Shown piece after piece: positions 4,461 to 24,107 of a stretch of 32,000 bases of DNA (positions are counted from its first letter, which is position 1; each line of letters opens with the position of its first letter). Position numbers and translations under genes: made by a program. The notes below the pieces were generated by a model. The model made no database searches. It was not told the DNA's origin and saw only the letters and a list, made by a program, of their open reading frames with translations. Source of the stretch: Candidatus Scalindua sp. (GTDB lineage Bacteria > Planctomycetota > Brocadiia > Brocadiales > Scalinduaceae); assembly GCA_031316235.1 (NCBI GenBank), contig JALDRA010000002.1, forward strand, positions 1 to 32,000, given 5' to 3'.

Positions 4461-4600
4461 TATACTAAAACCGATTTGGTTTTCGGTTTTACTGGAAACC
4501 AAATCTTGGTGAAGGTATCCCCGGACAAAAAGCGCCGAGGACTTGTACTCGCTCAATTTTATCTCGGATTTTATCCGAAATCCAGTATGAGATGAGTATA
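4461..4600 (+). repeat. Dispersed ~140-bp MITE-like element, copy 1 (full length, subfamily A). The + orientation is defined arbitrarily as TATACTAAAACC...GATGAGTATA
   Basis: It differs at 2 of 140 positions from copy 9 (23968..24107). It is intergenic, between the GT2 and GT-C genes. Confidence 0.95.
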
Positions 4601-4716
4601 TCTCATATTTTCCTGTAAAATATCAGTACTGGCCCGACACAAATTGCCATTAGAAACTGATGTGAACACCACTGAACAAAGTAAGCAGAGATGTTTTTTA
4701 CATAAAAATAATTCAA

Positions 4717-6243
4717 TCAGCATTTTATTGTTTCATTAAACTTCTGAAAAAGAGAAAGCATGCCGACGTAAAGAAACCCGATCGCATACATCAACAGAAA
4801 AGGCCCGAATACAAATTTCTTATTACTCGTATATTGCATAAATCCTATGAAGCAATATACGCTTAAGAGTATTTCACTGATGAAGAATACCTGCAGTGGT
4901 AATGAGTAATTTTTTACCAGTATATTCCTGCCTCGATTGATCACACCGTACTTGGGCGTTCTAATAAAATCACTCTTGATATTAAACAGTGCTTCGAATA
5001 CCGCTTTTGTGTTATTAACAGCAATGCCACACCCTATAACCATAAGTGCGGGAATAAACAAACACCTTTTCTTCCAGTCTTTATAGCCCTTTTTCTGAGA
5101 AACTATATAAAGAAATGTAGGCGCAAATGCTCCCATGGATATTAAAAATATCAGGATTACCATTGTTAGAGAAACTGACATGTTACTGATCTGCTCTTTT
5201 AATAAAACGATGAGAGGAAAGGATAACAGGGCAAGCATAATCATCATTGGATGGACCATGTACTGGTTCAGGTGAATAAAGGCCTCTACCTTCTTTATCA
5301 GGCTATCGTTCGTCTTGAATATTTGAGGTAAAACCTTTTTAGCTGTCTGAATAGAACCCTTTGCCCATCTATGCTGTTGAGATTTATAGGCATTTATATC
5401 AACCGGCAGTTCTGACGGCGTGACAACATCAAACAGAAATTTAGTATTCCAGCCTTTTAATTGAGCTCTGTATGACAGCTCCAGATCTTCCGTCAGGGTA
5501 TCAAAATTCCACCCACCTGAGTCAATAATTGCCTCCCGTCTCCAGACCCCGGCAGTTCCATTAAAATTCATATATAATCCATTCCAGTTCCTGGCACCCT
5601 GCTCGATAATAAAGTGGCCGTCCATACCAATGCTCTGTACTATTGTAAGAAGAGAGAAATTTGGATTTATGTGCCCCCATCGTGTTTGAATAATGGCAAC
5701 TTTTGACCTTTCATAAAAGAAGGGAATAGTGTCATAAAGAAAATCTTTATCAGGTACAAAATCAGCATCAAAGATTGCCAGAAACTCACCTTCAGCCTTT
5801 TCCATGCCCAGGTTTAATGCCCCTGCCTTAAATCCATCTCTCGTGTCTCTGACAATATGATTTATGTTAAACCCTATCGCACGGTATTTATTAACCAGTT
5901 CAGATACAATGTCCCTTGTTTCATCATTAGAATCGTCCAGTACCTGTATTTCATGAAGCTCCTTCGGATAATCAATATTTATGACTGCCTTAATTAAACG
6001 TCCGACTACATGCTTTTCGTTATAAACGGGTAATTGTGTTGTAACTTTTGGCAGCATATCTTTGCTATGATTTGACCAGAATTGTTTAAGAAACTCCTGA
6101 TTCCCGGATGTTTCCTTCTTGACCTTCCTTAAAAAGAGATAAATCATATAATAATTATTGATGCCATAAAGGAAGAGCCATATCGCTGCAGGACAATAGA
6201 AAATAAGAATTATTATCAGCAATGTTTTGTTCATATAAATCAT
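4717..6243 (-). CDS. Processive family-2 glycosyltransferase (membrane-embedded beta-glycan synthase, CslA/cellulose-synthase-like)
   Basis: Motifs DDSND, FDADF (DxD), TEDLELS (TED) and QQHRWAKG (QxxRW) are present. One N-terminal and several C-terminal hydrophobic helices are visible. Confidence 0.85.
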   Translation of the reverse strand: MIYMNKTLLIIILIFYCPAAIWLFLYGINNYYMIYLFLRKVKKETSGNQEFLKQFWSNHSKDMLPKVTTQLPVYNEKHVVGRLIKAVINIDYPKELHEIQVLDDSNDETRDIVSELVNKYRAIGFNINHIVRDTRDGFKAGALNLGMEKAEGEFLAIFDADFVPDKDFLYDTIPFFYERSKVAIIQTRWGHINPNFSLLTIVQSIGMDGHFIIEQGARNWNGLYMNFNGTAGVWRREAIIDSGGWNFDTLTEDLELSYRAQLKGWNTKFLFDVVTPSELPVDINAYKSQQHRWAKGSIQTAKKVLPQIFKTNDSLIKKVEAFIHLNQYMVHPMMIMLALLSFPLIVLLKEQISNMSVSLTMVILIFLISMGAFAPTFLYIVSQKKGYKDWKKRCLFIPALMVIGCGIAVNNTKAVFEALFNIKSDFIRTPKYGVINRGRNILVKNYSLPLQVFFISEILLSVYCFIGFMQYTSNKKFVFGPFLLMYAIGFLYVGMLSLFQKFNETIKC

Positions 6244-6285
6244 CTCATTTCGTTTGCAAATTTATTTTGACTGTAAGTGAGTTCT

Positions 6286-6993
6286 CTACAAGTTGAGAAG
6301 AACCTGCTTATTCTCATTGTAATTGCTATCCAATCTTTCCCGCAACGCTTTCCCAAGTGACGTTGCCTTATCTATTGCTTCCGGCTGTTTTTCCAGACAC
6401 GGAATGATTTCAGGTGTAATTTTCACGTCCTCACCAAAAAACCGCTTTACACCACTGAAGCGGCAAACTTCGCCATAACCACACGAAAAGCATGCTACAG
6501 CACCTTGCGCGGCCACAACACCCACGCATTCAATCTCATTATAATCAAAGAACCCCTTGATATCATCACCTGCTATTTCATACATTTTTATGTTTCTTCC
6601 GGGCATTTCCCACTCTCCACCGCCGCCTACTGAGGCAATAGCCCCTATTTTACCGGAAAGCGTCATACCTCCATGCCCATCTTTATCGTGCCGAAAACAG
6701 TAAAATCGCTCAAGAAACGCGTGTGTGAGGGCATTAAGTCGTCCAAAATAATTAGGAGCTCCAATAACTAGAGCATCGGCTTCTAATACCTTGTGCATCA
6801 GGGGAATATAATCATCCCGGACTTTACACACATTATCCTCGATACAGCCAAGACAGCATGTGCAACCATTAATTGTCATATTATGTAAGGATATCAGCTC
6901 TGTTTCCAGGCCGGTTGCATCTAATACCGTCTTAACTAATTCTTCTGTCGTATGGCTCTTTCTCGGACTGCCACTAATACCAAGTACTTTCAT
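6286..6993 (-). CDS. Iron-sulfur flavoprotein / NADPH-dependent FMN reductase family (Isf-like)
   Basis: MKVLGISGSPRK...HTTE is the flavodoxin-like FMN-binding start. The compact Cys cluster CTCCLGCIEDNVC is typical of Isf proteins. The ORF is open to 7035, but ATG 6993 is preceded by GGGAGA and matches the family N-terminus. Confidence 0.7.
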   Translation of the reverse strand: MKVLGISGSPRKSHTTEELVKTVLDATGLETELISLHNMTINGCTCCLGCIEDNVCKVRDDYIPLMHKVLEADALVIGAPNYFGRLNALTHAFLERFYCFRHDKDGHGGMTLSGKIGAIASVGGGGEWEMPGRNIKMYEIAGDDIKGFFDYNEIECVGVVAAQGAVACFSCGYGEVCRFSGVKRFFGEDVKITPEIIPCLEKQPEAIDKATSLGKALRERLDSNYNENKQVLLNL

Positions 6994-7095
6994 TTTGTCA
7001 TTTCTCCCATATAATTTATCAATAGAACCAGACACTGATTATAATCATTTTCCCGCTCATATCAATATCCAAGCCATACCAGCTCCTTTTTGATA

Positions 7096-7359
7096 CTAAT
7101 GTAACAATTTTTCTAAAATCTCTTTGCTCGGAGGCCGGTTTTCCTTGTATCGTATCACTCCATTCTTATTCAGGATTATATTTAGCGGTATGCCTACAAC
7201 TTGATACAACCTTGCAACTTCAGCCTTAGAGTCAAGGACAACGGGATAGATTATCCGGTTTTTCTCTGCAAAAGATTTGACCTTTTTGTTACTTCCCTGA
7301 ATGTAAATACCTGACACCTTAAGGCCATCGTCTTTACGATTGCTGTAATATTCCTTAAA
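7096..7359 (-). pseudogene. C-terminal remnant of a TlpA/ResA-like thioredoxin-fold redoxin, lacking the signal peptide and CxxC region
   Basis: The open frame reads FKEYYSNRKDDGLKVSGIYIQGSNKKVKSFAEKNRIIYPVVLDSKAEVARLYQVVGIPLNIILNKNGVI... This corresponds to the second half of TlpA-like proteins. An in-frame TGA at 7362..7360 sits only 2 nt from the stop of the upstream gene, so there is no room for the N-terminal part. Confidence 0.6.
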
Positions 7360-7364
7360 TCATA

Positions 7365-8123
7365 TCATTTTTGTGCATTTAAGCCCCAATCGTAATCAAG
7401 ATACTTTACGGCAACTTCATTGTTCCTGACAAATTCTGCATCCTCAGGATTTAAATATCCAGCCACATACTCTTCTATCTTTTTCACATTCTTAAGGAAA
7501 TCGCCCTCGTACCATTTAAAGATATGAGAGAGATATAAGATACGGTTTTCCTTATCCAGATAATTTCTGCTCTTGTCATTAATAAATGACACCGCTTGTG
7601 CTTCAAGCTGCTCTTCCAGTTTTTCAACCTTGTATGTTTCTGGTAATAATTTCGGACAACTCATAGAAGCGCAATTAATAGCAAAATGTATCCTTGGTTC
7701 TCGAAATGCCTCTCTCAGCTTTTTATTTTCCAGTACTTGTAATGTAATCTCGCCAAGCTTTATCTCAAATTTTTTTCTCTTGAAAAAACTGTCAGGAAGC
7801 CAGCCCACATCACGAACACTCTTTATCGGATACTCATCCAGGACTCCCTTTATAACAAATGCGTTATACGCGTTTATCCAGAATGCCAGGCGATGTTTAT
7901 CGGAAGGGAGATCATCAGGATTTGTATGAGAAAGATACTCAAGATATTTCTTAATCTCATTATCTTTCTTCAGCCCCTTATAATCCACTAACCCCTCCTC
8001 TGAAACATAACGGCCCAGGAGCCCATCGAAGATTGAACCCGGATCATCCTGTTCAGATGCAGAAACCTTAATTGCCAGGCCATGAACTATTGTCAAAACC
8101 AGCATTAGTATAATGGTCTTCAT
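7365..8123 (-). CDS. DUF547 domain protein with N-terminal signal peptide
   Basis: MKTIILMLVLTIVHGLAIKVSA is signal-like. The LAFWINAYNAFVIKG and IHFAINCASMSCPKL motifs are typical of DUF547 (PF04784). Confidence 0.75.
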   Translation of the reverse strand: MKTIILMLVLTIVHGLAIKVSASEQDDPGSIFDGLLGRYVSEEGLVDYKGLKKDNEIKKYLEYLSHTNPDDLPSDKHRLAFWINAYNAFVIKGVLDEYPIKSVRDVGWLPDSFFKRKKFEIKLGEITLQVLENKKLREAFREPRIHFAINCASMSCPKLLPETYKVEKLEEQLEAQAVSFINDKSRNYLDKENRILYLSHIFKWYEGDFLKNVKKIEEYVAGYLNPEDAEFVRNNEVAVKYLDYDWGLNAQK

Positions 8124-8231
8124 TTTTATCTTTTCCTCATTTTGATTAGAAAATAGATTCCCGCTTAACAGATTGCGGGAATGATAGAGAAATGTTAAGT
8201 AGATAAGTCAGGCCGCAGTAGCGACATGACT

Positions 8232-8371
8232 TATACTCATCTCATACTGGATTTCGGATAAAATCCGAGATAAAATTGAGCGAGTACAAGTCCTCGGCGC
8301 TTTTTGTCCGAAGATACCTTCACCAGGATTTAGTTTCCGGTAAAACCGAAAACCAAATCGGTTTTAGTATA
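8232..8371 (-). repeat. Dispersed ~140-bp MITE-like element, copy 2 (full length, subfamily A)
   Basis: It aligns over its whole length with copy 1 in reverse orientation. It ends 1 nt from the stop codon (8375..8373) of the decayed oxidoreductase gene. Confidence 0.95.
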
Positions 8372-8372
8372 T

Positions 8373-8950
8373 CTAACCAAACCATCTTATCAACTTCTTG
8401 GTGACCTTGGGAATCCATCCGGAAAATATCTTTTCCGCATAGTACATGTTCGTTGTCCTTCTTACCGCTTGAGACAAGGTGGGATAGACATGTATGGTCT
8501 TTGTAATACTTCCCACCCCGAGATTATTCTGCATTGCCATTGCAAATTCGTGCAATAGCTCTCCACCCTGCGGAGCAAGAACATGAGCTCCCAATATTTT
8601 ACCCTTCTTCGTACAGACGATTTTAATAATCCCCTTATCCTCACCTTTCTCTTCGGATCATCATGCACACCAATCTTTGATATCACCTCTCTCATGTGGG
8701 TCATAATATTCTTAAAATCGAAGGAGATATCTGTATCATTCAAGCCGTATTCCTTAGACCGTTTAATGAGTAAAGCTGCTTTAGCGGACCGCACCAATGC
8801 CTTTGTGGGAACACATCCATAGTAGAGACAATCCCCTCCCAGCTTGTTTTTCTCAACCAGGGCTACTCTGGCGCCAAGCTGAATCGCTCCACTCGCAACG
8901 TTTAAACCTCCAGCCCCACCACCAATTACCGTAAGATCAAAATCTTTCAT
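8373..8950 (-). pseudogene. Pyridine nucleotide-disulfide oxidoreductase (dihydrolipoyl dehydrogenase/mercuric reductase-like) with a large internal out-of-frame deletion
   Basis: The N-terminal ~100 aa are present: DLTVIGGGAGG, and GGDCLYYGCVPTK as the redox-active CxxxxC. The C-terminal dimerisation segment is present too (EDKGIIKIVCTKKGKILGAHVLAPQGGELLHEF...YPTLSQ). The two lie in different frames and join near 8640-8660. About 300 codons of the FAD/NAD central region are missing. Confidence 0.75.
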
Positions 8951-9633
8951 AATATTATTTTCTCAGTTTTCTTAAATTTTTTATACATAGTTGGTACCAG
9001 GGAAATCAATATCAACAGCGAACCTGCAATAATCAAATTCGTCATTGCCTTTTTTCCGCTCCCTGTCATGCCACTGAGAAGAGCATCTGCAAAATAGGTA
9101 TAAATAAATGTGCCGGGCAACATGCCAAGGACTGAACCCAGCAAATAATCACGGTACTTAATCCTGGAAAGACCAGAGCCAAAGTTAAGTCCATTAAAAG
9201 GGACAAGAGGGATTAGCCTGAGTGTGAATATAAACCGGAAACCATGACCGGCAACTTTTTCATCAAAGGACTCTATCCTTCCATTCATAAGCCTTGCCAC
9301 GAAATCTCGCCCGAAGTATCTTGCCATCAAGAATGCAAGAGTAGCACCCAGATTAGAGGCCAATATGTTATAAAAACTACCCCATACCACCCCGAATATT
9401 GCCCCTCCGCACAAGGTTAAGAGTGAACCGGGTAACGCGAAAACAGATCCGATACCATAAATAATAATGAAAACGGGAGGTCCCCACCAATGTTCCCTGA
9501 ACCGAGAAAGAAGATCCAGAAGCACTTCCTTTTGGGTATATTGCGACAAGGAAGTATATCTGAACGCAAAGTACGCACCCGCAATAATAATTATCAGAAT
9601 TGCAAACTTTATAATTGATTTCTTGTTCGTCAT
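8947..9633 (-). CDS. TVP38/TMEM64 (DedA/SNARE-associated) family membrane protein
   Basis: The ORF is 228 aa with 5-6 hydrophobic spans. Motifs G.LLTLCGGAIFG and F..RLIPL.PFN..N...G (PF09335-like) are present. Its stop overlaps the downstream ATG as ATGA. Confidence 0.75.
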   Translation of the reverse strand: MTNKKSIIKFAILIIIIAGAYFAFRYTSLSQYTQKEVLLDLLSRFREHWWGPPVFIIIYGIGSVFALPGSLLTLCGGAIFGVVWGSFYNILASNLGATLAFLMARYFGRDFVARLMNGRIESFDEKVAGHGFRFIFTLRLIPLVPFNGLNFGSGLSRIKYRDYLLGSVLGMLPGTFIYTYFADALLSGMTGSGKKAMTNLIIAGSLLILISLVPTMYKKFKKTEKIIL

Positions 9634-9666
9634 AATCTTTCTCTCAAGCTTTCTTAAACATTCTCA

Positions 9667-10029
9667 TCATATCAATATTTTGTAACTTTGACACCATGAG
9701 GGTATACCGTAAGCATTAGCTTGAAGGTCATTTCATAAACACACCCTTTGCGTCTGCAATTCAGAAACAAGCTTCGATAGTCGTATAAACCAAGGTAAAT
9801 TCGTTGTTTGACAAATACCAATTTTGACAGGACCTGCAATACCAAAACAACCCGACAGAGGCGAAGATATTCTTCTCTTCTGTAAGAATTCACTGACAAT
9901 TATTTCAAGAGTAGGAGATTCCAGGCTCTTAAAAGTTTCCTCTTCAAGAATTTCTAAAACTGTTTCCGCAACTTCAAATAAAGCCAAACGTGTATTTGTT
10001 CCTCTGATATCACCGCACAAAACCTTCAT
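9667..10029 (-). pseudogene. glk: Glucokinase remnant: N-terminal ~98 codons, an in-frame TGA, 21 more homologous codons, then truncation
   Basis: MKVLCGDIRGTNTRLALF...GIAGPV...TTNLPW is the ROK-less Glk N-terminus. After TGA (9735..9733) the same frame continues NDLQANAYGIPS, the conserved NDf.A.ayg motif, and stops at 9669..9667. Roughly 200 C-terminal codons are absent. Confidence 0.7.
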
Positions 10030-11573
10030 GCACTATTCCTCCACGCGCGTCCATCTTTAGCCAATAGTTTATTAGAATCCCCAGGCCCCCAGGAACCGGA
10101 AGCATAATTAGGGAAGTTTCGTGCAGGTAAAGTTCCCCAGACATCTAATATCGTTGTTAACGTACTCCAGGCACATTCGACATTGTCTGATCTCAAGAAC
10201 AAAGTCGCATCTCCATGCATGCAATCATAAAGCAAGGCTTCATATCCAATGGCGGCCTTTTTATTTCCAAAAAAATCAGAGTAGGTAAAATCCATTTTCA
10301 TTGTTCCAATATCAAGTGTAGCTCCCGGTTTTTTTGCACTGAAACTCAAAGAAATGCCTTCATTGGGTTGAATCCTGATAACCAAAACATTTGTTTCCAA
10401 ATTCTCAACGGCGGTCTCCCTGAATAAAGTAAAAGGCGGTTTTTTAAAATAAATAACAATCTCTGTCATCCTCTTTGCCATCCGCTTCCCGGTACGAATA
10501 TAGAAAGGGACACCCGCCCAACGCCAATTATCAATCATCATTTTCAGGGCAACAAACGTTTCTGTGTTCGATTTCGGATTTACATCCGGTTCGGAACGGT
10601 ATCCGGAAACCTTTTCTCCATTAGCGAGAACGCCTTCTCCATATTGACCCCTTACCGTACAAGACAATACATCTTCATGTGAATAAGGATATATCGCATG
10701 TAAAACTTTTGCTTTCTCATTACGAACAGCCTCTGCATCAAATGAATACGGCGGCTCCATGGCAATGTAACTTAGTAATTGCACGATGTGATTAGACACC
10801 ATATCGCGTAAAGCTCCCACCTCTTCGTAGTAAGAAGCCCGATGTTCCACTCCCAACTCTTCACTGACGGTAATCTGGATGTGATCAATATAACGACGAT
10901 TCCAGATAGGTTCAAAAATACCGTTGGCAAATCTGAAAACTAAGATATTCTGAACTGTTTCTTTACCCAAATAGTGATCAATACGATAAACCTGGGATTC
11001 AGCCAGGTATTTCTGTAATTCATGATTCAGAGCTTGTGCCGACTCTAAATCTCTGCCAAAAGGTTTTTCAATAATCACCCGTTTCCAGGTTTGATCATCC
11101 TGTTTAATCAGTTCGGTTTGCGATAAGTTCTTTGTAATTGTTCCAAAGATGTTAGGCGGTGTCGCAAGATAAAAGAGACGGTTTCCCTGCGTTTTGTGGT
11201 TTTGCTCTATCTCAAGCAGTAACGTCTTCAGGTTTTCATAACTTGAAGGATCATCATAATCCCCTTGAACGTAGTAGAGACGCTGAGAAATCCAACCCTG
11301 TAATTCCGGGCTGTTTAATTCACAAGAGACAAACTGGCAGAGATCGCCGCTCAGTTTCTCACGAAATTGTTCATTTGTCAACTCCTTTCTTGCGAAGCCG
11401 ATGACGGCAAATTCATCAGGAAGCAGTTTCTCTGCACTGAGATTGTAAAGAGCGGGTATTAACTTACGCATCGTCAAGTCGCCGGAAGCTCCAAAAATAA
11501 CGATTAAACAAGGGCCTGCAGGCATCTCCATTATATTTATATTTTTTATTTCTTGAATATTTTTAGGCGTCAC
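10026..11573 (-). CDS. zwf: Glucose-6-phosphate 1-dehydrogenase
   Basis: FGASGDLTMRKL is the NADP-binding motif and RIDHYLGKE is the active-site signature; EKPFGRDL is also present. GTG start at 11573 is preceded by AGGAGA at 5 nt. An alternative ATG lies at 11531. Confidence 0.95.
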   Translation of the reverse strand: MTPKNIQEIKNINIMEMPAGPCLIVIFGASGDLTMRKLIPALYNLSAEKLLPDEFAVIGFARKELTNEQFREKLSGDLCQFVSCELNSPELQGWISQRLYYVQGDYDDPSSYENLKTLLLEIEQNHKTQGNRLFYLATPPNIFGTITKNLSQTELIKQDDQTWKRVIIEKPFGRDLESAQALNHELQKYLAESQVYRIDHYLGKETVQNILVFRFANGIFEPIWNRRYIDHIQITVSEELGVEHRASYYEEVGALRDMVSNHIVQLLSYIAMEPPYSFDAEAVRNEKAKVLHAIYPYSHEDVLSCTVRGQYGEGVLANGEKVSGYRSEPDVNPKSNTETFVALKMMIDNWRWAGVPFYIRTGKRMAKRMTEIVIYFKKPPFTLFRETAVENLETNVLVIRIQPNEGISLSFSAKKPGATLDIGTMKMDFTYSDFFGNKKAAIGYEALLYDCMHGDATLFLRSDNVECAWSTLTTILDVWGTLPARNFPNYASGSWGPGDSNKLLAKDGRAWRNSA

Positions 11574-11676
11574 GATTTCTCCTGTTTTACAGATTAAAAA
11601 TTTTTGCTATTGGTAACTGATTCAACGTGCCCTCCAGACGTCATCCGCATAGCCGATAAAACTTTCTCGGCAAAGG

Positions 11677-11814
11677 TATACTCATCTTAAAATGGTTTTC
11701 GGATAAAATCCGAGATAAAATTGAGCGAGTACAAGTGCTCGTCGCTTTTTGTCCGGGGATACCTTCATAGATTTAGTTTCCGGTAAAACCGAAAATCAAA
11801 TCGGTTTTAGTATA
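11677..11814 (-). repeat. Dispersed MITE-like element, copy 3 (138 bp, subfamily B, several substitutions and a 2-nt deletion)
   Basis: It aligns full length with the other copies. It lies about 100 nt upstream of the zwf start. Confidence 0.9.
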
Positions 11815-12085
11815 TGATCCTGACAGGAGAGAAAACGGGTGCAGAGTGCCGCTGAAAGAACCTCGACAGGTCGGAAGTGAGATAACCTCTCTCAGCCGCC
11901 CCTCCAGTTTTATCCCTTCCAGGTGTCTGCTCAATAGTACCTTTGCCAGGAGCCAGCGTCTTGCCGGTTCAACTCTATGTCTTCCAAACGAACATTCCCA
12001 CAAAGGTATTGTATGCAATGTTCAATACATGATCTGATTCGTGATAAGGGAGGTTGGCTCATGCAGAAAATAAATGATTGTGAAA

Positions 12086-15362: not shown

Positions 15363-15476
15363 TATACTCATCTCATAATGGTTTTCGGATAAAATCCGAG
15401 ATAAAATTGAGCGAGTATACCTTCACCAAGATTTGGTTTCCGGTAAAACCGAAAACCAAATCTTGGTGAAGGTATA
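15363..15476 (-). repeat. Dispersed MITE-like element, copy 4 (short 114-bp variant). It contains a perfect 24-bp inverted repeat, 15416..15439 / 15453..15476
   Basis: It lacks the 28-nt internal module CAAGTCCTCGGCGCTTTTTGTCCGGGGA. Its right arm is exactly complementary to its left arm (TATACCTTCACCAAGATTTGGTTT). It lies in the divergent region between the channel gene and pepD. Confidence 0.9.
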
Positions 15477-15636
15477 CAATTGCTGTCACGTATTAATCCA
15501 GTAGTCAGATAGACAAGTTAGAATTTACCCATTCAGCTGAAAAATTCATCAAAGTTAAAGCATTGAGAAGCGTTAAAAAAGAGGAGGAAGTGTTATAGTA
15601 TTTCACGAAGCGATTCAGGATCTGGAGCCTCGATTA

Positions 15637-17058
15637 TTGTGGGAGAGTTTTTCTCAGATTACACAAATTCCCCGGCCGTCAAAAAAAGAGGAGAAGATTG
15701 CAAAATTCATCAAAGAGATTGCTCTTCAGCACAATCTCCCGTGTAAGCAGGACAGTGCGGGTAACCTCTTAATCACGAAACCTGCAACACCAGGCATGGA
15801 CGATCGCCCAATCATTGTACTCCAGAGTCACCTGGATATGGTTTGCGAGAAAAATGAAGGGAAAGAGCATGATTTTGAAAAAGACCCCATCGTGATAAAA
15901 CGCGAAGGTGACTGGATCATGGCAGAGGGTACTTCACTCGGAGCTGACAACGGGATCGGTGTAGCTGCAGCGTTGACCATAATTAAATCTGACACACTTG
16001 TCCATGGACCGCTCGAATTTCTCTTTACCGTAGACGAGGAAACCGGTCTTACGGGAGCAAAATCACTTCAAGGTGATTTTGTAAACGGTCGAATTCTTTT
16101 AAATTTAGACTCCGAAGAGGACGGCACGCTGTTTATAGGTGGTGCAGGCGGGCTGAGCACCTCCTTGATGAAAAAGATTGAATGGGTGTACACGCCTTCC
16201 GGATGCATAGCGTACAAAATCAAGCTTAGCGGTCTCTGCGGCGGTCATTCCGGCCTGGATATCAATAAAGGTCTGGGGAACGCAATCAAACTCATGACAC
16301 GATTCCTGTTTCATCTCAATCAGGATGCAGAAGTGTATCTTTTTTCCTTTAACAGCGGAGAAAAACACAATGCAATCCCAAGAGAGGCAGAAGCTGGAAT
16401 TGTCATAAGGGGTGAATATGAAATCCTGTTGCAGAAAGCGGTGAAAAAGTTTGAGACCATATACATGAATGAGCTTCTGTTTACTGAGAAGAACGTAAAG
16501 TTGCGTATCAACCGGATTAAAGAACCACCTTCTCAAGTATTCAGCTCACATTTTCAGAATACGCTTATCTCTCTTCTCTATACTCTCCACCATGGTGTTT
16601 TGAGGATGAGCTGTGGGGTACCTGGCCAGGTTGAAACATCATCGAACCTTGCAGCCGTTCATACTTCTGAAAATCGAGTCGAAATATTGACCAGCCAGAG
16701 AAGTTCGATGATTACAGGCATTGATGATTGCGCCAACAAAATCAAGACTGCTGGTTTCCTTGCAGGCATGGAGGTAAAACAGGGAAATCGCTATCCTGTC
16801 TGGCAACCGGATCCGGACTCAAAGTTAGTGAAGGTTTGCCGATCAGTTTACCATGAATTATATGGATGTGAACCTGAAGTCAAGACAATTCACGCGGGAT
16901 TGGAGTGCGGCATAATCAGGGATCATTTTAAAGGGATGGACACCATTTCATTCGGCCCTACAATACAGAGCCCTCATTCACCAGATGAGAGAATGAATAT
17001 CCAGACGGTAAAAAAATTCTGGGATTATCTGGTACTCCTTCTGAAAAATATCCGGTAA
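15637..17058 (+). CDS. pepD: Aminoacyl-histidine (Xaa-His) dipeptidase, M20 family
   Basis: IPRPS.KEE, HLDMV, LGADNGIG, DSEEDG and a C-terminal HSPDE are all present. The start shown is TTG 15637, with GGAG 9 nt upstream. Homology to PepD N-termini (LEPRLLW) extends upstream, so the true start is uncertain (see findings). Confidence 0.9.
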   Translation: MWESFSQITQIPRPSKKEEKIAKFIKEIALQHNLPCKQDSAGNLLITKPATPGMDDRPIIVLQSHLDMVCEKNEGKEHDFEKDPIVIKREGDWIMAEGTSLGADNGIGVAAALTIIKSDTLVHGPLEFLFTVDEETGLTGAKSLQGDFVNGRILLNLDSEEDGTLFIGGAGGLSTSLMKKIEWVYTPSGCIAYKIKLSGLCGGHSGLDINKGLGNAIKLMTRFLFHLNQDAEVYLFSFNSGEKHNAIPREAEAGIVIRGEYEILLQKAVKKFETIYMNELLFTEKNVKLRINRIKEPPSQVFSSHFQNTLISLLYTLHHGVLRMSCGVPGQVETSSNLAAVHTSENRVEILTSQRSSMITGIDDCANKIKTAGFLAGMEVKQGNRYPVWQPDPDSKLVKVCRSVYHELYGCEPEVKTIHAGLECGIIRDHFKGMDTISFGPTIQSPHSPDERMNIQTVKKFWDYLVLLLKNIR

Positions 17059-17226
17059 AGCCAAGATTGATATCTTTCAGAGTATCAAAGCCTGAAGGAT
17101 CAAAAAGGTGAGTTCTCACGTCAGCAGGGCGTATAAACTTATTGTTTGACTGCAACTCTGCTTTATCTATCCATCTTCGAAACACTGCCATTTCCTGCTC
17201 TTCAGATTAATCCTGATTGATTCATC

Positions 17227-17366
17227 TATACTCATCTTACAATGGTTTTCGGATAAAATCCGAGATAAAATTGAGCGAGTACAAGTCCTCGGCGTTTTTT
17301 GTCCGGGGATACCTTCACCAAGATTTGGTTTCCGGTAAAACCGAAAACCAAATCGGCTTTAGTATA
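17227..17366 (-). repeat. Dispersed MITE-like element, copy 5 (full length, subfamily B)
   Basis: It aligns full length with the other copies. It lies between the convergent pepD and aroA 3' ends. Confidence 0.95.
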
Positions 17367-17433
17367 TTTCCAATTTCTGTCTTGTTTCTCAAATCAGATA
17401 GTTTCCGTCAATCTTGAAAATCTGACAACACAT

Positions 17434-18741
17434 TCAAGGTGTTTCATTACATATCGACTGGAGTTTTTCAAAATAGTCAGGGAATGTCTTTGCGACACAA
17501 TCAGGATTTTCCAACGTAATCCCCTCTGATCGCAAACCGATAAGCGCAAAGCTCATTGCCATACGGTGATCATCATATGTTGCTATGCGGGCAGCATGAG
17601 GGGCAGCAGGTTCGATCTCAAGACCATCATCATATTCTATCACATTGACTCCGATTTTCTGGAGTTCGGTTACAAGTGCCTTAATCCGATCAGTCTCTTT
17701 GTAGCGAAGATTCTTCACGTTTCGTATGTGCGTTTTCCCCTTTGCGAAGACTGCAACAACCGCCAGGGTCTGCACAACATCAGGGGTATCATTCATGTCG
17801 ATGTCTATCCCCTTCAACTCCCCACCTTCGATTTCCATCCAGTCATCACTTTTCTTCACCGTACAGCCCATTCTGCTCAATATGTCGGCAAATGCGGCAT
17901 CACCCTGGAGTGAATTGGTACCCAGGCCTTCAATTTTCACCTTTCCTCCCGTTATCGCTGCGGCTGCCAGGAAGTATGAGGCGTTAGATGCATCTGGCTC
18001 GACGATGTACCCGCACCCCTTATAGCACTGACCGGATTCAATAAAAAACTCTCTGTACGCATCCTGCCTTACCGTTACACCGAATTTCCTCATGACATCG
18101 ATTGTCATATCAACATAATTTTTCGAAACGAGATCCTCTGTTATTACAAGACGGACATCATTAGTCGCATAGGGGGCTGCTAAAAGGATTGCACTGACAT
18201 ACTGACTGCTTACATCACCCTTCATCCTGACTGTACCCCCCTTCAGTCCGTGCGCATGTATCACAACAGGCGGACAACCGGTATTATCCTTTGACACGAC
18301 ATTTGCCCCAAGTTGATTCAGACTATCAAGCAATTCCTGAATTGGTCTGTTCCTCATCCGTTCAACCCCGTCTATCTCATACCTGCCGTTCCCTAACGTC
18401 AGGGCCGCAGTCATAAATCGGACAACAGTTCCGGCGTTGCCTGCATATATGTTTGCTTCCCTGGCAGGTACTTTACCGCTGCAGCCGTTTACCAGCAGCG
18501 AATTATCTTCCGGAACACTTTTAACGGATACTCCTATGGTGTTAAGACCTGCTATCATGAACCGGGTATCATCGCTCAGCAGCGGATTTTTTATGACGGA
18601 TGGTCCTGCCGCAAGCAAAGCGGTTATCAGGGCCCTGTTCGTGTAGCTTTTTGATCCGGGAACAAGAACGGATGCCCGGATCCTGCCGGTTGGTTTTATT
18701 TCCAATATATCAACCACAAATTCCTCCTTACAGATGTTCAT
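17434..18741 (-). CDS. aroA: 3-phosphoshikimate 1-carboxyvinyltransferase (EPSP synthase)
   Basis: LVPGSKSYTNRALI, GNAGTVVRFM and DDHRMAMSFAL are present. The length of 435 aa fits the family. Confidence 0.95.
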   Translation of the reverse strand: MNICKEEFVVDILEIKPTGRIRASVLVPGSKSYTNRALITALLAAGPSVIKNPLLSDDTRFMIAGLNTIGVSVKSVPEDNSLLVNGCSGKVPAREANIYAGNAGTVVRFMTAALTLGNGRYEIDGVERMRNRPIQELLDSLNQLGANVVSKDNTGCPPVVIHAHGLKGGTVRMKGDVSSQYVSAILLAAPYATNDVRLVITEDLVSKNYVDMTIDVMRKFGVTVRQDAYREFFIESGQCYKGCGYIVEPDASNASYFLAAAAITGGKVKIEGLGTNSLQGDAAFADILSRMGCTVKKSDDWMEIEGGELKGIDIDMNDTPDVVQTLAVVAVFAKGKTHIRNVKNLRYKETDRIKALVTELQKIGVNVIEYDDGLEIEPAAPHAARIATYDDHRMAMSFALIGLRSEGITLENPDCVAKTFPDYFEKLQSICNETP

Positions 18742-18997
18742 TCACCGTCAGTATCCTGCTCAGAATGGTGAGCACAGGTACTGTTCATACGAAAACAGTT
18801 TCAATTCAATGCGATTATATGATGCCGGCAACACTTCATCAAGAACAAATGTACGGGACGGAATGTTTTTTACCCATTTTTGAAAATTATCAATTTTTTC
18901 TATGCAAAATTGTGGTATAACTTATATAATTTACCTGAATCTGAAAATTATTACGATACTTTTTGTAATTTGCTTAAAATTGAAAAGGAGTCACTAG

Positions 18998-19945
18998 TTG
19001 GACAAAAAGAAAAAAGTTGTTATCGGGTCAAGAGGAAGTAAATTAGCCTTGATACAGGCTAATTGGGTTAAAACACAATTGGAAGAAAAGTATCCGGAAA
19101 CCGAATTTGCTATTGAAAAGATAAAGACAACCGGAGATAAAATAACGGATGTACCGCTTGCGAAGATCGGTGCAGTAGGGCTGTTTACGAAAGAGCTTGA
19201 AAATGCTCTTCTCGATAAGAAGGTTGATCTTGTCGTTCATAGCGCCAAAGATGTTCAGACAGAGATACCGGAAGGCCTGGTACTTGGTGCTTTTACTGAA
19301 CGCAAGGACCCCCACGATGTACTTATCAGCAAAGATAATGTCTCTTTACGGGATCTGCCGAAAAATACAAAAATTGGTACGAGTAGTCTAAGGCGAAGAT
19401 CACAGATTCTTGCTTTCCGGCCGGATATTGAAGTTGTTGATATCAGGGGAAATCTTGATACGAGGTTACAGAAAATAGAATCAGGAGAATTAGATGCTAT
19501 CGTAGTAGCCATGGCAGGTTTGCAGCGATTTGGCCAAACCGACAAAGTAAGTGAAGTAATATCATATGATATTATGCTCCCTGCGGTTGGGCAGGGGGCA
19601 CTCTGTATAGAAATACGAGACGGTGATTTAGTCATTGAGAAAATCGTCTCAACCCTGAACCATTACGATACAAGGTATGCCGTCAAGGCGGAAAGAGCCC
19701 TGCTTGCAAAGCTCCAGGGAGGATGTCAGGTCCCGGTAGGTGCTCACGCAGAAGTATTATACCCTGTCAATATAAAAATAGAAGCTGTTATAGGCTCACT
19801 GGATGGAACTACCATCTACAGAGATTCAGTTACCGGCAAGGTAGATGATTGTGAAATTCTGGGGGAGGAACTTGCAAACAAGCTTTCAGGCATGGGCGGT
19901 TATGCGATTTTAAGTGAAATACGAAGCAGTCTTGCAAAAGAATAA
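18998..19945 (+). CDS. hemC: Hydroxymethylbilane synthase (porphobilinogen deaminase)
   Basis: IGSRGSKLALIQA and IRGNLDTRLQK are present, as is GGCQVPVG carrying the cofactor Cys. The TTG start is preceded by AAGGAG at 7 nt. Confidence 0.95.
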   Translation: MDKKKKVVIGSRGSKLALIQANWVKTQLEEKYPETEFAIEKIKTTGDKITDVPLAKIGAVGLFTKELENALLDKKVDLVVHSAKDVQTEIPEGLVLGAFTERKDPHDVLISKDNVSLRDLPKNTKIGTSSLRRRSQILAFRPDIEVVDIRGNLDTRLQKIESGELDAIVVAMAGLQRFGQTDKVSEVISYDIMLPAVGQGALCIEIRDGDLVIEKIVSTLNHYDTRYAVKAERALLAKLQGGCQVPVGAHAEVLYPVNIKIEAVIGSLDGTTIYRDSVTGKVDDCEILGEELANKLSGMGGYAILSEIRSSLAKE

Positions 19946-19983
19946 ATAACCTGCAAGTGGTGTGAGCGGTATCTTCAACTCTT

Positions 19984-20095
19984 CATACTCATCTCATAAT
20001 GGTTTTCGGATAAAATCCGAGATAAAATTGAGCGAGTATACCTTCACCAAGATTTGATTTCCGATAAAACCGAAAACCAAATCGGTTTTAGTATA
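19984..20095 (-). repeat. Dispersed MITE-like element, copy 6 (short 112-bp variant, subfamily B)
   Basis: It has the same 28-nt internal deletion boundaries as copy 4. Its first base is C instead of T. It starts 39 nt after the hemC stop. Confidence 0.9.
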
Positions 20096-20160
20096 TCGTG
20101 AAATCAGGCAGTAAGGCGGAAAATCATTTCACTGAATTGATCAGCAACAGCCTTACAAAG

Positions 20161-20210
20161 CCCTGAATTCAGGGCTAAGGAAAAATACCGGATTATTTTT
20201 CCTTAGCCCC
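20161..20210. terminator. Two adjacent hairpins between convergent genes (possible bidirectional terminator)
   Basis: The palindrome CCCTGAATTCAGGG spans 20161..20174. A perfect 16-bp stem pairs GGGCTAAGGAAAAATA (20172..20187) with TATTTTTCCTTAGCCC (20194..20209), with a 6-nt loop. No clean T-run follows on either strand, so the terminator function is uncertain. Confidence 0.35.
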
Positions 20211-20302
20211 TGCCATTTTACTATGAACGTATTCCCCGCAAAAGGCCTGATTGGCATCAGCAATGCCGACTCTCTCCCGGATTGCATGAACTCCTTCATG
20301 AT

Positions 20303-21688
20303 TCAGCCAACATTGTTATATTCCCTTACCCGGAATCGGACACCCAGCTCTTCGGCGATCTTCCTGCAGCTCTCAATGTCAACACCCGGTACGCTGACGA
20401 CAGAGACCATTACGTCGGGTATGAATTTCTTTGCCTTTTTGATAAAAGAGATCAGAGAGGCATAGGCATTACCATCATAAGGTTTACCATCAAATGAAGG
20501 CTGGCATAATCGTTCGTATTCATCAGCATTGTCAGTATTTAAACTTATGCATATGGTGTCTATCAACCCCTTCAGCTCTTCACAGATAGATCTGCCGTTA
20601 ATCAGATCCCCCAGGCCATTGGTATCAAGCCTCACTACCGCCCCCTTCTCTTTCAGATATCGGGCAACTGACGTTAACACATCCATTCTCTCCGTGGACT
20701 CTCCAAACCCGCAAAAAACAACTTCATCATATCCCGAAGGATCTCCGATAGCCGTTATCAACTCTTCTATCGTTGGCTCCTTTTCAAGACCAAGATAATA
20801 ACCCTTGACATAGGGAGCTGTTTCCCGGGAGCAGAAGACACAACGATTTGAACACCGGCTTGTTATGTTAAGATAAAGTGAGTTTCTAATTACATACGCA
20901 ATCTTCCCCCCTTGAGTATCGGGATGTCCGATACGGAAAAGATTCATGGCATTGTGAGTTGTAATTCTTTTAATGTCTTCAACGGAAAGTTTCTGCAGTT
21001 CGGCAAGGACAGGAATCACGTGCTCGAGATAAGACGGCTCATTTCGCTCTCCCCTCTTTGGTTGCGGGGCGAGAAAAGGGCAATCTGTTTCCAGAACCAG
21101 CCTTTCCACCGGCACTCTCCTGACAACCGCTCTTAGTGCTGTTGCCTTGGGAAATGTTACGGGTCCTGCAAATGAGATATGAAAACCCAGATCCAGAAAC
21201 TTCTCCGCAGTGTCCTTATCACCGCTGAAACAGTGAATGACACCTTCTATCTTCCCATCATAGGAACGAAGAATATCAAGACAGTCACTGCTTGCATCAC
21301 GGTTGTGAATGATAACAGGAAGTTTCATCCGCATTGCAAGTTCCAGATGCCGATGAAACAGCTTTTTCTGTTCATCAGGGCTGCTGCGATCACGGTAATA
21401 ATCAAGTCCTGTCTCACCGATGGCAACAATCTTTTCTTTTCCCGCTAAATTTTCCAGACAGGTCCAGTCATCTTCTGAAACATTTGACGCCTCATTTGGA
21501 TGGATTCCCGCACTCGCAAAAACCTCACTGAACCGCTGTGCAAGTTCAAGGGATCTCTTAGTTGACTTAACACTTACACCTACGTTGATAAAGTATTCAA
21601 CACCAACATTTTTTGCCCGTAATATTACCTCGTCAACTTCATTACGGTAGTCAGGAAAATCCAGGTGCGTATGCGTATCAATTATCAT
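20303..21688 (-). CDS. TatD-family metal-dependent hydrolase fused to a C-terminal radical SAM domain (TatD-associated rSAM type)
   Basis: The N-terminus reads IDTHTHLDF...GLDYY...HCFSG...ETDCPFLAP, which is TatD. The C-terminal ~190 aa carry CSNRCVFCSRE (CX3CX2C) and a small rSAM fold (FCGFGEST, RLDTNG). Confidence 0.8.
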   Translation of the reverse strand: MIIDTHTHLDFPDYRNEVDEVILRAKNVGVEYFINVGVSVKSTKRSLELAQRFSEVFASAGIHPNEASNVSEDDWTCLENLAGKEKIVAIGETGLDYYRDRSSPDEQKKLFHRHLELAMRMKLPVIIHNRDASSDCLDILRSYDGKIEGVIHCFSGDKDTAEKFLDLGFHISFAGPVTFPKATALRAVVRRVPVERLVLETDCPFLAPQPKRGERNEPSYLEHVIPVLAELQKLSVEDIKRITTHNAMNLFRIGHPDTQGGKIAYVIRNSLYLNITSRCSNRCVFCSRETAPYVKGYYLGLEKEPTIEELITAIGDPSGYDEVVFCGFGESTERMDVLTSVARYLKEKGAVVRLDTNGLGDLINGRSICEELKGLIDTICISLNTDNADEYERLCQPSFDGKPYDGNAYASLISFIKKAKKFIPDVMVSVVSVPGVDIESCRKIAEELGVRFRVREYNNVG

Positions 21689-21947
21689 AATTTATTTGTA
21701 TCCTCGTCTTTGACAAAATGTATGAATATGCCTCAGGTAAAGAGGCACCGTCGAGATTATGAAAATCGAGGTTTACCTCCCTCCCGGCCGATGCATGAGG
21801 AACGGTTTCCGATAGTTCGCAACGTGCAGATACAGTTATCTTTATTCAAAAACCCTGCACATCAGTATCTCTTCAGTCTATCCCGAACTCATTTCCCGGC
21901 CATTAAACGGTAAGAGGCTCTGTGCGTCACGTGGGAACCAATCTGGT

Positions 21948-22169
21948 TTATTTAAAAGATTTTTCGTCCCGATAATGCGGATCAATCCAGCATCTGGGAA
22001 GCTCTTCACCAGAGGGAAATAGTAAATCAGACTTCTTGAATTTCTCTGGATCCTGCAGCTCTTCCCCCTGCTGATAGCGGCCGACCACTTCACCATGGTA
22101 AGGAGCAAACAGCTCCTTTAAAGTTAATACCTCAACCAGATCATGATTACTTCTATCTTTTAAAAACAT
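21948..22169 (-). CDS. Small conserved hypothetical protein (73 aa)
   Basis: The sequence is MFLKDRSNHDLVEVLTLKELFAPYHGEVVGRYQQGEELQDPEKFKKSDLLFPSGEELPRCWIDPHYRD. From memory it resembles a widespread small uncharacterised family (..LVEVL.L..LF.P....V.GR...GEE.QDPE.F.KS.L.F.SGE.LP.CW.DP.YR). No function is known. Confidence 0.5.
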   Translation of the reverse strand: MFLKDRSNHDLVEVLTLKELFAPYHGEVVGRYQQGEELQDPEKFKKSDLLFPSGEELPRCWIDPHYRDEKSFK

Positions 22170-22436
22170 ACCTTACTCCAAAATCCTGTATTTGTATTGG
22201 AAGACTTACCATTAAGATAGATCTGATAATAAAGTTACCTATTGTCTAAGTCAAGGGAAAAGAAAAGGTTATTTAACTGTAATGGATGCCTCAAATGGAC
22301 CAGTCAGGTCTGGAACAACCACAGGATATTCTGACATAATGATCGCGCAATAAAAACAACCGGTTGTGCGGATGTTCTAAGATTTTTTCTCAAATCGACT
22401 CAAATTTCAGGCCGGTGATAAGAAGAGTACGGTAGT

Positions 22437-22576
22437 TATACTAAAACCGATTTGGTTTTAGATTTTTCTAAAAACCAAAGCCTGGTTACTGGTATCCCCG
22501 GACAAATGGCGCCGAGGACTTTACTCGCTCCGTTTTTTTTCGGATTTTATCCGAAAACCATTATAAGATAAGTATA
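22437..22576 (+). repeat. Dispersed MITE-like element, copy 7 (140 bp, degenerate/old copy, subfamily B)
   Basis: It has the same length and termini as the consensus but roughly 25 substitutions. The internal hairpins are partly destroyed. Confidence 0.8.
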
Positions 22577-22867
22577 AGACCAGAAGCAGGTGATCCAGCA
22601 AGTACCGTATCTTCCCCGTGTCAATAAAACTGCTTTATCATGTCCTGTAGAGTCATGCCGGCAATTTTTTAAGAATTCCTGAATGGTGACCAGGACATCT
22701 CACCAAATGGTATTTGCATTCCCATACAGCATGTGCTAATTTATTAAAATTTTGTTGAATAACTTCCGTAACTTTTCGTGTAACCTATTCCTATCACCAG
22801 GAGTTATTCTCTTTACAACAACTTCAAATCTCTACAAAAACTGCACAGCAGAGCTGCTGGTTTCAGG

Positions 22868-23012
22868 TATACTAAAACCGATTTGGTTTTCGGTTTTAGT
22901 ATACCTGAAACCAAATCTTGGTGAAGGTATCCCCGGACAAAAAGCGCCGAGGACTTGTACTCGCTCAATTTTATCTCGGATTTTATCCGAAATCCAGTAT
23001 GAGATGAGTATA
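22868..23012 (+). repeat. Dispersed MITE-like element, copy 8 (145 bp, subfamily A, 5-nt insertion variant)
   Basis: A change near the apical loop makes 22868..22903 a perfect 14-bp-stem hairpin, TATACTAAAACCGA / TCGGTTTTAGTATA. The copy ends 31 nt before the fabD-like ATG. Confidence 0.95.
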
Positions 23013-23043
23013 AATTAAACCGATCGACATAGGAGGAAAAAAG

Positions 23044-23898
23044 ATGGTAACGTTTGTATTTCCAGGACAGGGCTCACAGAAAAAAGGTATGGGAGATACC
23101 CTGTTTGATGAATTCCGGCCGCAGACAGCAGAAGCTGATCAAATTCTTGGCTATTCTATCAGGGAATTGTGTATAGATGACCCCAATGACCAGTTGGGAT
23201 TGACACAATACACTCAACCGGCGTTGTATGTGGTCAATGCCTTGTCCTATTTGAAGTGTTTACAGGAGACGAACAGAAAACCTGATTTCGTGGCTGGCCA
23301 TAGCCTGGGAGAATATAATGCACTGTTTGCGGCAGATGCCTTTGATTTTGAGACCGGTGTAAAGTTGGTAAAGAAAAGAGGTGAATTAATGAGCCAGGCA
23401 ACTGGCGGTGGAATGGCTGCCGTGATCGGCCTGAGCGAAAAAGAGGTCAGCGAGATTCTTAAGAACAACAATCTGGAAGGTATTACCATAGCAAATTACA
23501 ATACTCCATCCCAGTTAGTACTCTCAGGACGAAAAGCTGATATTGACAGGGCCCAACCAATTTTTGAAAGTTCAAATGCACGAAGGTACATACCGCTCCA
23601 GGTAAGTGCCGCGTTTCACTCTCCGTACATGAATGAGGCCAGGAGTGAGTTCGCCGAATTTCTGGAAGGATTTGAGTTTTCAGAATTGAAAATACCCGTA
23701 ATCTCGAACATCCATGCGTTGCCCTATGAGCCTTCAGCATTAAAAGAGAATTTAGCAGAACAAATCACCCACTCGGTAAGATGGACAGACAGCATACGAT
23801 ACTTGATGGCAAAGGGTGAAATGGTTTTTGAAGAGATAGGCCCGGGGAATGTCTTAAAGGGATTGGTCCGTAATATAAAAAGGGAGCTTGAAAACTAA
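23044..23898 (+). CDS. fabD: ACP S-malonyltransferase family acyltransferase (FabD / trans-AT-like)
   Basis: FPGQGSQ and GHSLGEY (active-site Ser) are present. [10 protein letters not shown] is a variant I associate with trans-AT-type enzymes, from memory. AGGAGG lies 7 nt upstream of the ATG. No other fab genes are adjacent. Confidence 0.85.
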
Positions 23899-23967
23899 AC
23901 GGACAAAAATATTGGTAATCGTATCTGTGCCGTTCGCATTGATATGTATTGCTAACGGTTGCGGGGA

Positions 23968-24107
23968 TATACTAAAACCGATTTGGTTTTCGGTTTTACC
24001 GGAAACCAAATCTTGGTGAAGGTATCCCCGGACAAAAAACGCCGAGGACTTGTACTCGCTCAATTTTATCTCGGATTTTATCCGAAATCCAGTATGAGAT
24101 GAGTATA
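23968..24107 (+). repeat. Dispersed MITE-like element, copy 9 (full length, subfamily A; used here as the consensus)
   Basis: Sequence: TATACTAAAACCGATTTGGTTTTCGGTTTTACCGGAAACCAAATCTTGGTGAAGGTATCCCCGGACAAAAAACGCCGAGGACTTGTACTCGCTCAATTTTATCTCGGATTTTATCCGAAATCCAGTATGAGATGAGTATA. Confidence 0.95.

Follow-up and report, generated by a model that had tools for sequence, protein, structure and literature searches.

What is the hairpin-rich sequence of about 140 nucleotides (nt) that occurs nine times in the first 32,000 nt of contig JALDRA010000002.1 of Candidatus Scalindua sp. (the stretch analyzed here, hereafter the window), and how did it come to be there? A sequence-only reading of this DNA had proposed a miniature inverted-repeat transposable element (MITE) resembling the Correia elements of Neisseria. 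Our analysis leads to a similar answer: with a probability of roughly 0.7, the nine repeats are copies of a non-autonomous MITE of Candidatus Scalindua that is moved in trans by a transposase recognizing inverted repeats, probably one of the IS630 type. The family is apparently undescribed and would be selfish DNA of an ordinary type whose host, an anammox member of the Planctomycetota, is unusual. No paper combining Scalindua and MITEs was found in the searchable literature.

Dispersal and insertion at TA

The nine copies listed in the sequence-only reading were all recovered, each in its place and on its strand, by repeat finding, by direct extraction and with an nhmmer profile built from six of them (E 1e-25 to 4e-49). 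No tenth window copy was found with the profile at E<1e-3, the extra matches being only palindromic echoes of the H1 hairpin described below. Far from being bound to this locus, the element is dispersed over four to five Scalindua-type genomes at least. One of its 28-mers was found without mismatch in 98 stretches of a species-representative genome collection, originating from Candidatus Scalindua SCAELEC01, RBC_AMX3 and OFTM1, a Scalinduaceae metagenome-assembled genome (MAG) and the MAG MFD09964; by record titles, all of these are Candidatus Scalindua or Scalinduaceae, save the last, which is titled only uncultured Planctomycetota. With 766 kb of genome stretches fetched (numbered L001 etc.), nhmmer gave 181 matches, 170 of them outside the window, and 114 full-length copies, made up of 105 outside the window and the window's nine. 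The termini are very sharp across the family (TATACTAAAACCGATTTGG ... GAGATGAGTATA, that is TATACT...AGTATA), and the flanks of the 114 full copies are unrelated, as are those of the nine window copies to one another.

Insertion at the dinucleotide TA can be read from other repeats that the element has entered. A second repeat family of about 150 bp (...ACGCTCCGGTTACGTAATTATTTCGCGCCTTGTACCTGGGCAG...) has been hit repeatedly at one TA; examples are L087 5289-5446, L086 1124-1281, L077 4454-4611 and L071 2293-2454, with some 55 more, and 51 of the 59 matches are in SCAELEC01, the other genomes having few members of the family and the window none. Its empty members read ...CGCGCCTTGTACCTGGGCAG... 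(CCTTG-TA-CCTGG) and its filled members ...CGCGCCTTG TATACT...GAGTGTA CCTGGGCAG... (CCTTG-TA[TACT...GAGTG]TA-CCTGG), which shows insertion at the TA with a TA left on each side. Variants of other lengths (L095, L078) fill the same TA in reverse orientation, so that at least two independent events occurred in this repeat, and a third repeat family records a further one (TTAA-TA-AGTAAC in one empty relative). The comparison of empty sites proposed in the sequence-only reading therefore gave TA at the empty sites and an apparent duplication in the filled ones. Copies also abut or nest at their terminal TAs, head-to-tail and tail-to-tail (L066, L001), TA borders nearly all of the 114 full copies, and equivalent sites are found with and without a copy. 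Comparison of species yielded no orthologous empty sites, the intergenic DNA being too diverged to align. The pattern seen here, insertion at TA with apparent duplication, is the one by which IS630/Tc1-mariner transposition is recognized and which several bacterial MITEs, RUP and Correia among them, also show (PMC2229807). The proposal of a Correia-like MITE is thus upheld by dispersal, TA insertion and intergenic placement (see below), and we met neither confinement to one locus, nor a match to a named family, nor an empty site lacking TA.

The number of copies per genome can be given only roughly. The 28-mer by which the fetched loci had been selected lies in the right half of the element, the left half being equally conserved, and just 4 of the 46 "secondary" copies in the fetched blocks carry it exactly; together with about 45 exact matches per genome, this yields a rough figure of 300-500 copies per genome. 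The least biased estimate of density, likewise rough, is about one copy per 15 kb in two other Scalindua genomes. Extrapolating the window to the genome would overstate this, one copy per 3.5 kb being unusually dense. Lineage-specific subfamilies were found: the subfamily A right end and an GGACTTGTACTCGC variant with an extra G occur in the window's genome only, in near-identical copies, which fits a recent local burst, and the family may well be active at present. Viral contig collections gave 0 matches to the element and plasmid collections none, and a phage or plasmid vector was rejected on these grounds. A known RNA family was rejected for lack of Rfam matches, with 0 in the window at gathering thresholds and noise only (<=16.4 bits) in a relaxed search.

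Modular architecture and the nine window copies

Either strand of a 140-nt copy reaches about -50 kcal/mol on folding, compared with -28.7 +/- 3.6 for shuffled sequences (z about -5.8), and the minimum-energy fold has a left hairpin (H1), a right hairpin (H3) and a small one in the middle. Copy 9 (23968-24107, plus strand; 140 nt, subfamily A) serves as the reference for these parts, all given on the plus strand. Its left end (23968-23993) reads TA followed by TACTAAAACCGATTTGGTTTTCGG, and its right end (24082-24107) reads CCGAAATCCAGTATGAGATGAGTA followed by TA, the first and the last TA being the apparent target duplication. H1 (23969-24025) has the apex GGTTTTCGG TTTTA CCGGAAACC and the base ATAC(U)...GGUAU, and H3 (24051-24107) the apex TCGGA TTTTA TCCGA and the base GUACUC...GAGUAU. 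Between them lies an optional middle module of 28 nt (24025-24052) with the stem TCCCCGG...CCGAGGA and a loop that is, in the alignment, the most variable part of the family. The imperfect 26-bp inverted repeat described earlier was found again, the left end matching the reverse-complemented right end at 18/26 positions in subfamily B and 17/26 in subfamily A; the outer TATACT/AGTATA is perfect, and an inner 10-nt match is formed by hairpin arms.

Most copies measure 112-169 nt, and the length classes are 57, 91, 111-113, 130-140, 162-169 and up to 251 nt, a range of 57-251 nt that arises because hairpin modules are absent, single, doubled or extended. The middle module is missing in the short copies (including window copies 4 and 6) and doubled in L024, L074 and L012. 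H3 is found alone as a 55-nt unit (L005, L048). The 57-nt copies, located at three different sites, consist of the two ends only, TATACTAAAACCGATTTGGTTTTCGG and CCGAAAACCATTATGAGATGAGTATA, with a TTTTA loop between them. GC-rich hairpins (CCTGTCTGCG...CGCACAGGCAGG or CCCGTCC...GGGCGGG) may be inserted directly past the TTTTA loop of H1 or H3, and a further optional one follows H1. No protein-coding gene lies inside the element; one frame is open throughout but changes with module content. Size and the absence of coding capacity agree with those of bacterial MITEs (<~200-300 bp, noncoding), and the set of features as a whole fits the definition given for them (PMC2229807).

Other sequences are associated with the element's loops. 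GC-rich palindromes of 28-34 nt (CCCGTCCGAACGG...CCGGGCGGG), of the same kind as those nested in the TTTTA loops, are also free-standing in these AT-rich genomes (L092 2784-2811, L091 5932-5961, L081 4384-4413, L006 5063-5096, L097 4823-4856), where they look like a REP-like family. The H1 loop has itself received a repeat of about 245 nt (ends ...GTCCGGTTAGGTTTTTGCG / CGCAAAAACCTAACCGGA...) at L091 5154-5512 and L066 644-about 800, with GTTTTA on both sides in L091. At L098 4416-6112, an IS110-family element of about 1.7 kb sits in the middle-hairpin loop of a copy; its DEDD_Tnp_IS110 and Transposase_20 domains are split into open reading frames (ORFs) of 283 aa and 121 aa.

Within the window, four copies are on the plus and five on the minus strand, all within 20 kb. 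The two subfamilies distinguished earlier were confirmed, with copies 1, 2, 8 and 9 forming subfamily A. Copy 1 (4461-4600, plus; 140 nt; nhmmer E=4e-49) has the window-specific right end ...CCGAAATCCAGTATGAG and, as had been noticed, differs from copy 9 at only 2 of 140 positions (33 T/C and 72 G/A). Copy 2 (8232-8371, minus; 140 nt) is flanked by two genes of the minus strand, the 3' end of a short Pyr_redox_2 ORF (162 aa) being 90 nt away, and copy 8 (22868-23012, plus; 145 nt) has a 5-nt insertion (GTATA) in its H1 loop and ends 32 nt upstream of a fabD-like gene. Copy 3 (11677-11814, minus; 138 nt), of subfamily B, is placed between a G6PD gene and an alpha-amylase-family gene, and copy 5 (17227-17366, minus; 140 nt), with a subfamily B right end, between convergent genes for an M20 peptidase and EPSP synthase. 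The diverged copy 7 (22437-22576, plus; 140 nt) is a member of an old subfamily, present also in RBC_AMX3 and SCAELEC01, whose H1 apex is compensated (TTTTAGA TTTT TCTAAAA). In the short copy 4 (15363-15476, minus; 114 nt), the complement of the H1 3' arm stands in place of the left terminus, so that the outer arms are perfectly complementary over 21 nt, and nhmmer matches it in both forward and reverse direction at 15430-15475. Copy 6 (19984-20095, minus; 112 nt), the other short form, lies 39 nt past the hemC stop codon and is the sole window copy not ending in TA (it ends GTATG), the remaining eight having TA at both ends as the sequence-only reading had stated.

Placement, decay and the mode of transposition

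Placement is mostly intergenic, with 102 of the 114 full copies free of overlap with ORFs of >=100 aa in DNA that is about 72% coding according to a crude caller. The claim that every window copy is intergenic held for most of them, the exception being copy 1, which abuts a truncated DUF3179 gene fragment. The ORF concerned (4179-4556, minus) covers only the C-terminal third of the domain (profile positions 210-292 of 292), and its homology begins at the left boundary of copy 1 (4461), so that the gene was truncated at the element. Between tandem genes, 23 copies are in sense and 27 in antisense orientation; within 400 nt upstream of genes the orientations divide 51/49, downstream 38/47, and no fixed distance from copies to gene starts or stops was found. 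With no orientation bias relative to neighboring genes, a strand-specific RNA role is unsupported. A GC stem followed by T5 had suggested a terminator module; the T-run, however, sits in the variable loop of the middle hairpin in the minimum-energy fold, consensus scans of the copies for promoters and terminators showed nothing systematic, and either kind of module was rejected. The stems decay neutrally. Single-side changes in the H1 stem kept the pair 50 times and broke it 43 times, about as transitions would by chance, and covariation came out only marginally above controls (15 versus 9.3 double-change cells), two event-type measures being not significant. Truncated copies, solo-end remnants and copies split by other elements are common.

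A sibling family of 182 nt has a different interior and near-perfect inverted ends of 26 bp (TATACCCATYACRRANTGGWTTT) that are <=3 mismatches from the right end of the element (L004 453-634, L037 432-613, L046 6093-6274, L083 about 290-472, L039 2409-2618); the copy in L039 contains the element's middle module (TCCCCGG...CCGAAGA). Common to both families is a motif of TATAC with TGGTTTT about 10 nt further in (TATACYCAT..TGGTTTT). Such shared end features would be expected if one transposase served several MITEs, and the TA target makes an IS630-like enzyme the likeliest class.

Several observations weigh against an IS630-like MITE. In agreement with the sequence-only reading, no transposase gene bounded by element ends was found in about 800 kb, where end-motif pairs at the spacing of an insertion sequence (IS) proved to be only neighboring copies, ordinary genes or the IS110 insertion in L098; multi-copy ORFs in the fetched DNA were ordinary genes, with no multi-copy transposase among them, and the IS630 signature motif SPxLNPxE was absent from the fetched loci. 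An enzyme of the IS630 class is on this account no more than probable. A TA duplication looks, by sequence, no different from what results when an element whose own end is TA is inserted on the 3' side of a TA. Beyond the terminal 6 nt, the likeness of the inverted ends stems from the arms of H1 and H3, so that of the proposed 26-bp terminal inverted repeat the 18/26 match stands, but apart from TATACT it represents largely the arms of two similar hairpins. H1 and H3 are moreover direct repeats with a common asymmetric TTTTA loop, an arrangement also typical of single-strand (HUH) transposons, and in the fetched loci the top strand of the element lies on the locally C-rich strand 74 times versus 47, a weak trend (p=0.018 uncorrected). 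Conservation between species is the last of these points. The consensus of the 112-nt core differs by <=1 nt among three genomes, and a fourth (CBDCUS) adds an alternative TTGCAGTTA patch. One syntenic copy (L012 4498-4609 / L053 6827-6939) is 97% conserved between two species, with 3 differences, in a spacer of which most is unalignable. Element identity between genomes (~94%) equals that within genomes, and orthologous genes of the genomes compared are only 76-84% identical (81-82% for the alpha-amylase-family gene of the window and that of RBC_AMX3). This appears to exceed what would obviously be predicted for a purely selfish, decaying element; a conserved active master lineage, horizontal spread or some selection could each explain the shared consensus.

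These points can be set against other explanations. A local segmental duplication or recombination at this locus, with no mobile family involved, would suit nine clustered copies of which some are nearly identical, but it is next to inconceivable given that all flanks are unrelated, that the family occupies dozens of contigs in several species and that empty sites exist. A module that serves the host and is kept by selection at each site, through mRNA stability or processing, protein binding or nucleoid organization, with mobility as its historical origin only, would account for the near-identical consensus in four species, the retained syntenic copy and the very stable fold of both strands; a few compensated stem variants, such as CACTC...GAGTG (L003/L004/L080 lineage) and the AGA/TCT apex subfamily of three genomes, point the same way. 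We consider it unlikely, however, since copies are neither biased in orientation nor set at a constant spacing from the starts or stops of genes, pairing in the stems is disrupted by mutation as frequently as expected of neutral transitions, the covariation signal hardly rises above that of the controls and the promoter and terminator scans were empty of anything systematic, while module content varies freely and copies are truncated, nested, interrupted by IS110 or present and absent at equivalent sites. Also improbable, to about the same degree, is that the element is a long-lived partner of Scalindua, whose hairpins would be selected by the host or which would resemble a REPIN-RAYT system with a dedicated single-copy enzyme leaving TA on both sides; such a partnership would account for the shared consensus, the retained syntenic copy and the direct-repeat end hairpins with the same loop.

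The hairpins could also belong to an HUH/Y1 transposon, either an IS200/IS605-derived PATE or a REPIN mobilized by RAYT, in which H1 and H3 would be the left- and right-end hairpins read on one strand and insertion would take place 3' of TA without duplication, the 3' end of the element itself being TA. The apices indeed repeat each other directly, asymmetric loop included (TCGG(A)TTTTA(T)CCGRAAACCA), at 13 and 17 nt from the ends, and the conservation of the whole element across species resembles that of long-lived REPIN populations. Fragments of IS200-type TnpA lie beside element ends twice: at 22692-22739 (minus) in the window, where an IS200/IS605-type N-terminal remnant (LAHAVWECKYHLVRCP, then frame decay) is found in the 291 nt that separate copies 7 and 8, and at L060 1131-1401, 50 nt from a 32-nt left-end fragment. 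The strand-composition bias of 74 to 47, considered as a sign of replication-strand bias, may be added, as may the strongly skewed orientation on some RBC_AMX3 contigs (0/7, 7/1, 9/2), although there is no consistent match to GC skew and contig R7 runs counter to the C-rich-strand trend. An IS200/IS605 parent was nevertheless rejected: two intact TnpA relatives of the Scalindua type (L100, L103) share ends unrelated to the element, which thus has no ends in common with an IS200/IS605 element of the same genomes. The adjacency to TnpA is probably better explained by MITEs landing in IS debris, as for RUP. A RAYT-like Y1 transposase gene (L049 2721-3281, minus; 186 aa; Y1_Tnp E=2e-4 and 22.0 bits, slightly short of the curated cut-off, 23) was found in the Scalinduaceae MAG, flanked by its own TCTGTAAGGGCAGG... 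hairpins (GGGCAGG...CCTGCCC); these differ from the element, which in this one genome does not flank the gene in inverted orientation, and a RAYT parent was rejected for it. Both orientations at the same TA, plus and minus copies mixed in the window, the dispersal of 57-nt single-hairpin copies and a sibling with conventional 26-bp inverted ends likewise speak against HUH/Y1 transposition, which seems to us a rather improbable origin.

The non-autonomous MITE remains our preferred reading, and it suggests the following model. A transposase supplied in trans, most likely a DDE enzyme of the IS630/Tc1-mariner type, would recognize the two-part end motif of TATAC with TGGTTTT about 10 nt inward, excise or copy the element and integrate it at a TA dinucleotide, with TA ending up on both sides. 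The minimal unit acting in cis is the two ends, TATACTAAAACCGATTTGGTTTTCGG and CCGAAAACCATTATGAGATGAGTATA, and the forms of 112, 140, 166 and up to 251 nt are produced by gain, loss, doubling and extension of hairpin modules. Individual copies would then decay neutrally and only the transposition-competent sequence lineage would persist, so that several species would have the same consensus. Effects on neighboring genes, such as gene truncation next to copy 1 or possible hairpins in co-transcribed RNA, would be incidental.

Relation to known repeats and other features of the window

Judged by sequence or host, the element is not a member of the Correia/NEMIS, RUP, ERIC, BOX or BIME families. 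Correia elements begin TATAGCGGATTAAC..., and the similarity of the Scalindua element, which is hosted by an anammox planctomycete, ends at the first TATA; it lacks homology to their consensus and a Neisseria host, although it works as they do. Its inverted repeat is composed of 6 perfect nt and a 10-nt subterminal block, and its module content is far more variable (57-251 nt). Correia/NEMIS elements measure ~107 and ~155 bp, are noncoding and mostly intergenic, and have TA ends with target duplication; one internal block distinguishes the long from the short form, long stem-loops form in their transcripts and no parent transposase is known (PMC2229807). Similarly, the 112- and 140-nt forms of the Scalindua element differ by a 28-nt block. 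RUP of Streptococcus pneumoniae, of ~107 bp, is intergenic, inserts at TA and tends to land in or beside other mobile elements (PMC2229807), just as Scalindua copies lie inside the second repeat family, beside IS200 debris and beside each other. For RUP, however, a parent with matching ends is known (IS630-Spn1), whereas that of the Scalindua element was not found in ~800 kb.

ERIC/IRU sequences are conserved across species more than their surroundings, and the Scalindua consensus is likewise near-identical in four species; the sequences are unrelated, however, and the effect of ERIC on mRNA depends on orientation, for which the Scalindua element has no bias. BOX of pneumococcus and the BIMEs of E. 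coli are mosaics of a few hairpin modules that may be present, absent or repeated, comparable to a middle module that occurs 0, 1 or 2 times and to loops with optional GC-rich hairpins, but they have no counterpart to the sharp TATACT/AGTATA ends and the TA duplication. REP/REPIN-RAYT systems and PATEs lie outside genes, abound in hairpins, with a similar pair close to the ends, and persist for long across species. The Scalindua element shares the paired end hairpins and the persistence across species and differs in having ends unrelated to those of the Scalindua-type IS200 and RAYT-like genes, both orientations at one TA and a sibling with classic inverted ends. ERIC/IRU elements of enterobacteria are also intergenic and strongly folding, with a length of ~127 bp (PMC2229807).

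The understanding of how MITEs work is unchanged by these results, and their interest lies in the host, the extreme modularity with nested hairpins and the conservation across species, which would deserve a closer look if upheld in closed genomes. Anammox bacteria are without a pure culture and known mainly from MAGs. A repeat that may number in the hundreds per genome causes assemblies to break in practice: apart from the window, the exact FabD was found only on a short-read contig of 1 kb that breaks off ~60-90 nt beyond each end of the gene, near the positions of copies 8 and 9 in the window (a metagenome scan with FabD gave nothing closer than 52%). The element is also a marker of genome change in Scalindua, bordering at least one truncated gene in the window and being itself a landing site for an IS110-family element, GC-rich hairpins and other MITEs, and its copies offer sites for strain typing. 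The end motif shared by two MITE families (TATACYCATNNNNNNNTGGTTTTNGG-type ends) provides a concrete handle for finding the transposase.

The gene content of the window is that of an ordinary chromosome, with G6PD, EPSP synthase, hemC, the fabD-like gene, radical-SAM enzymes, glycosyltransferases and a large Ig-repeat protein. The Pyr_redox_2 ORF near copy 2 (8462-8950, minus; 162 aa) is an N-terminal-like fragment covering profile positions 1-58 of 291, and a glucokinase ORF of 98 aa (9733-10029, minus) is a similar one (positions 1-94 of 314); these short ORFs suggest local gene decay. Directly past copy 9, an ORF of 135 aa (24169-24576, plus) contains a phage Mu GemA domain, and no further phage genes are visible nearby. 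Two 300-nt copies at 27653-28276, spaced by 324 nt and 85% identical, fall inside the gene at 27289-31968 (minus) for a protein of 1559 aa with Big_5 and Big_7 Ig-like domains and are therefore coding domain repeats. Two unusual fusions were also observed, one of TatD_DNase and Radical_SAM (20303-21688; 461 aa) and one of Radical_SAM, SPASM and a class I methyltransferase (80-2650, minus; 856 aa).

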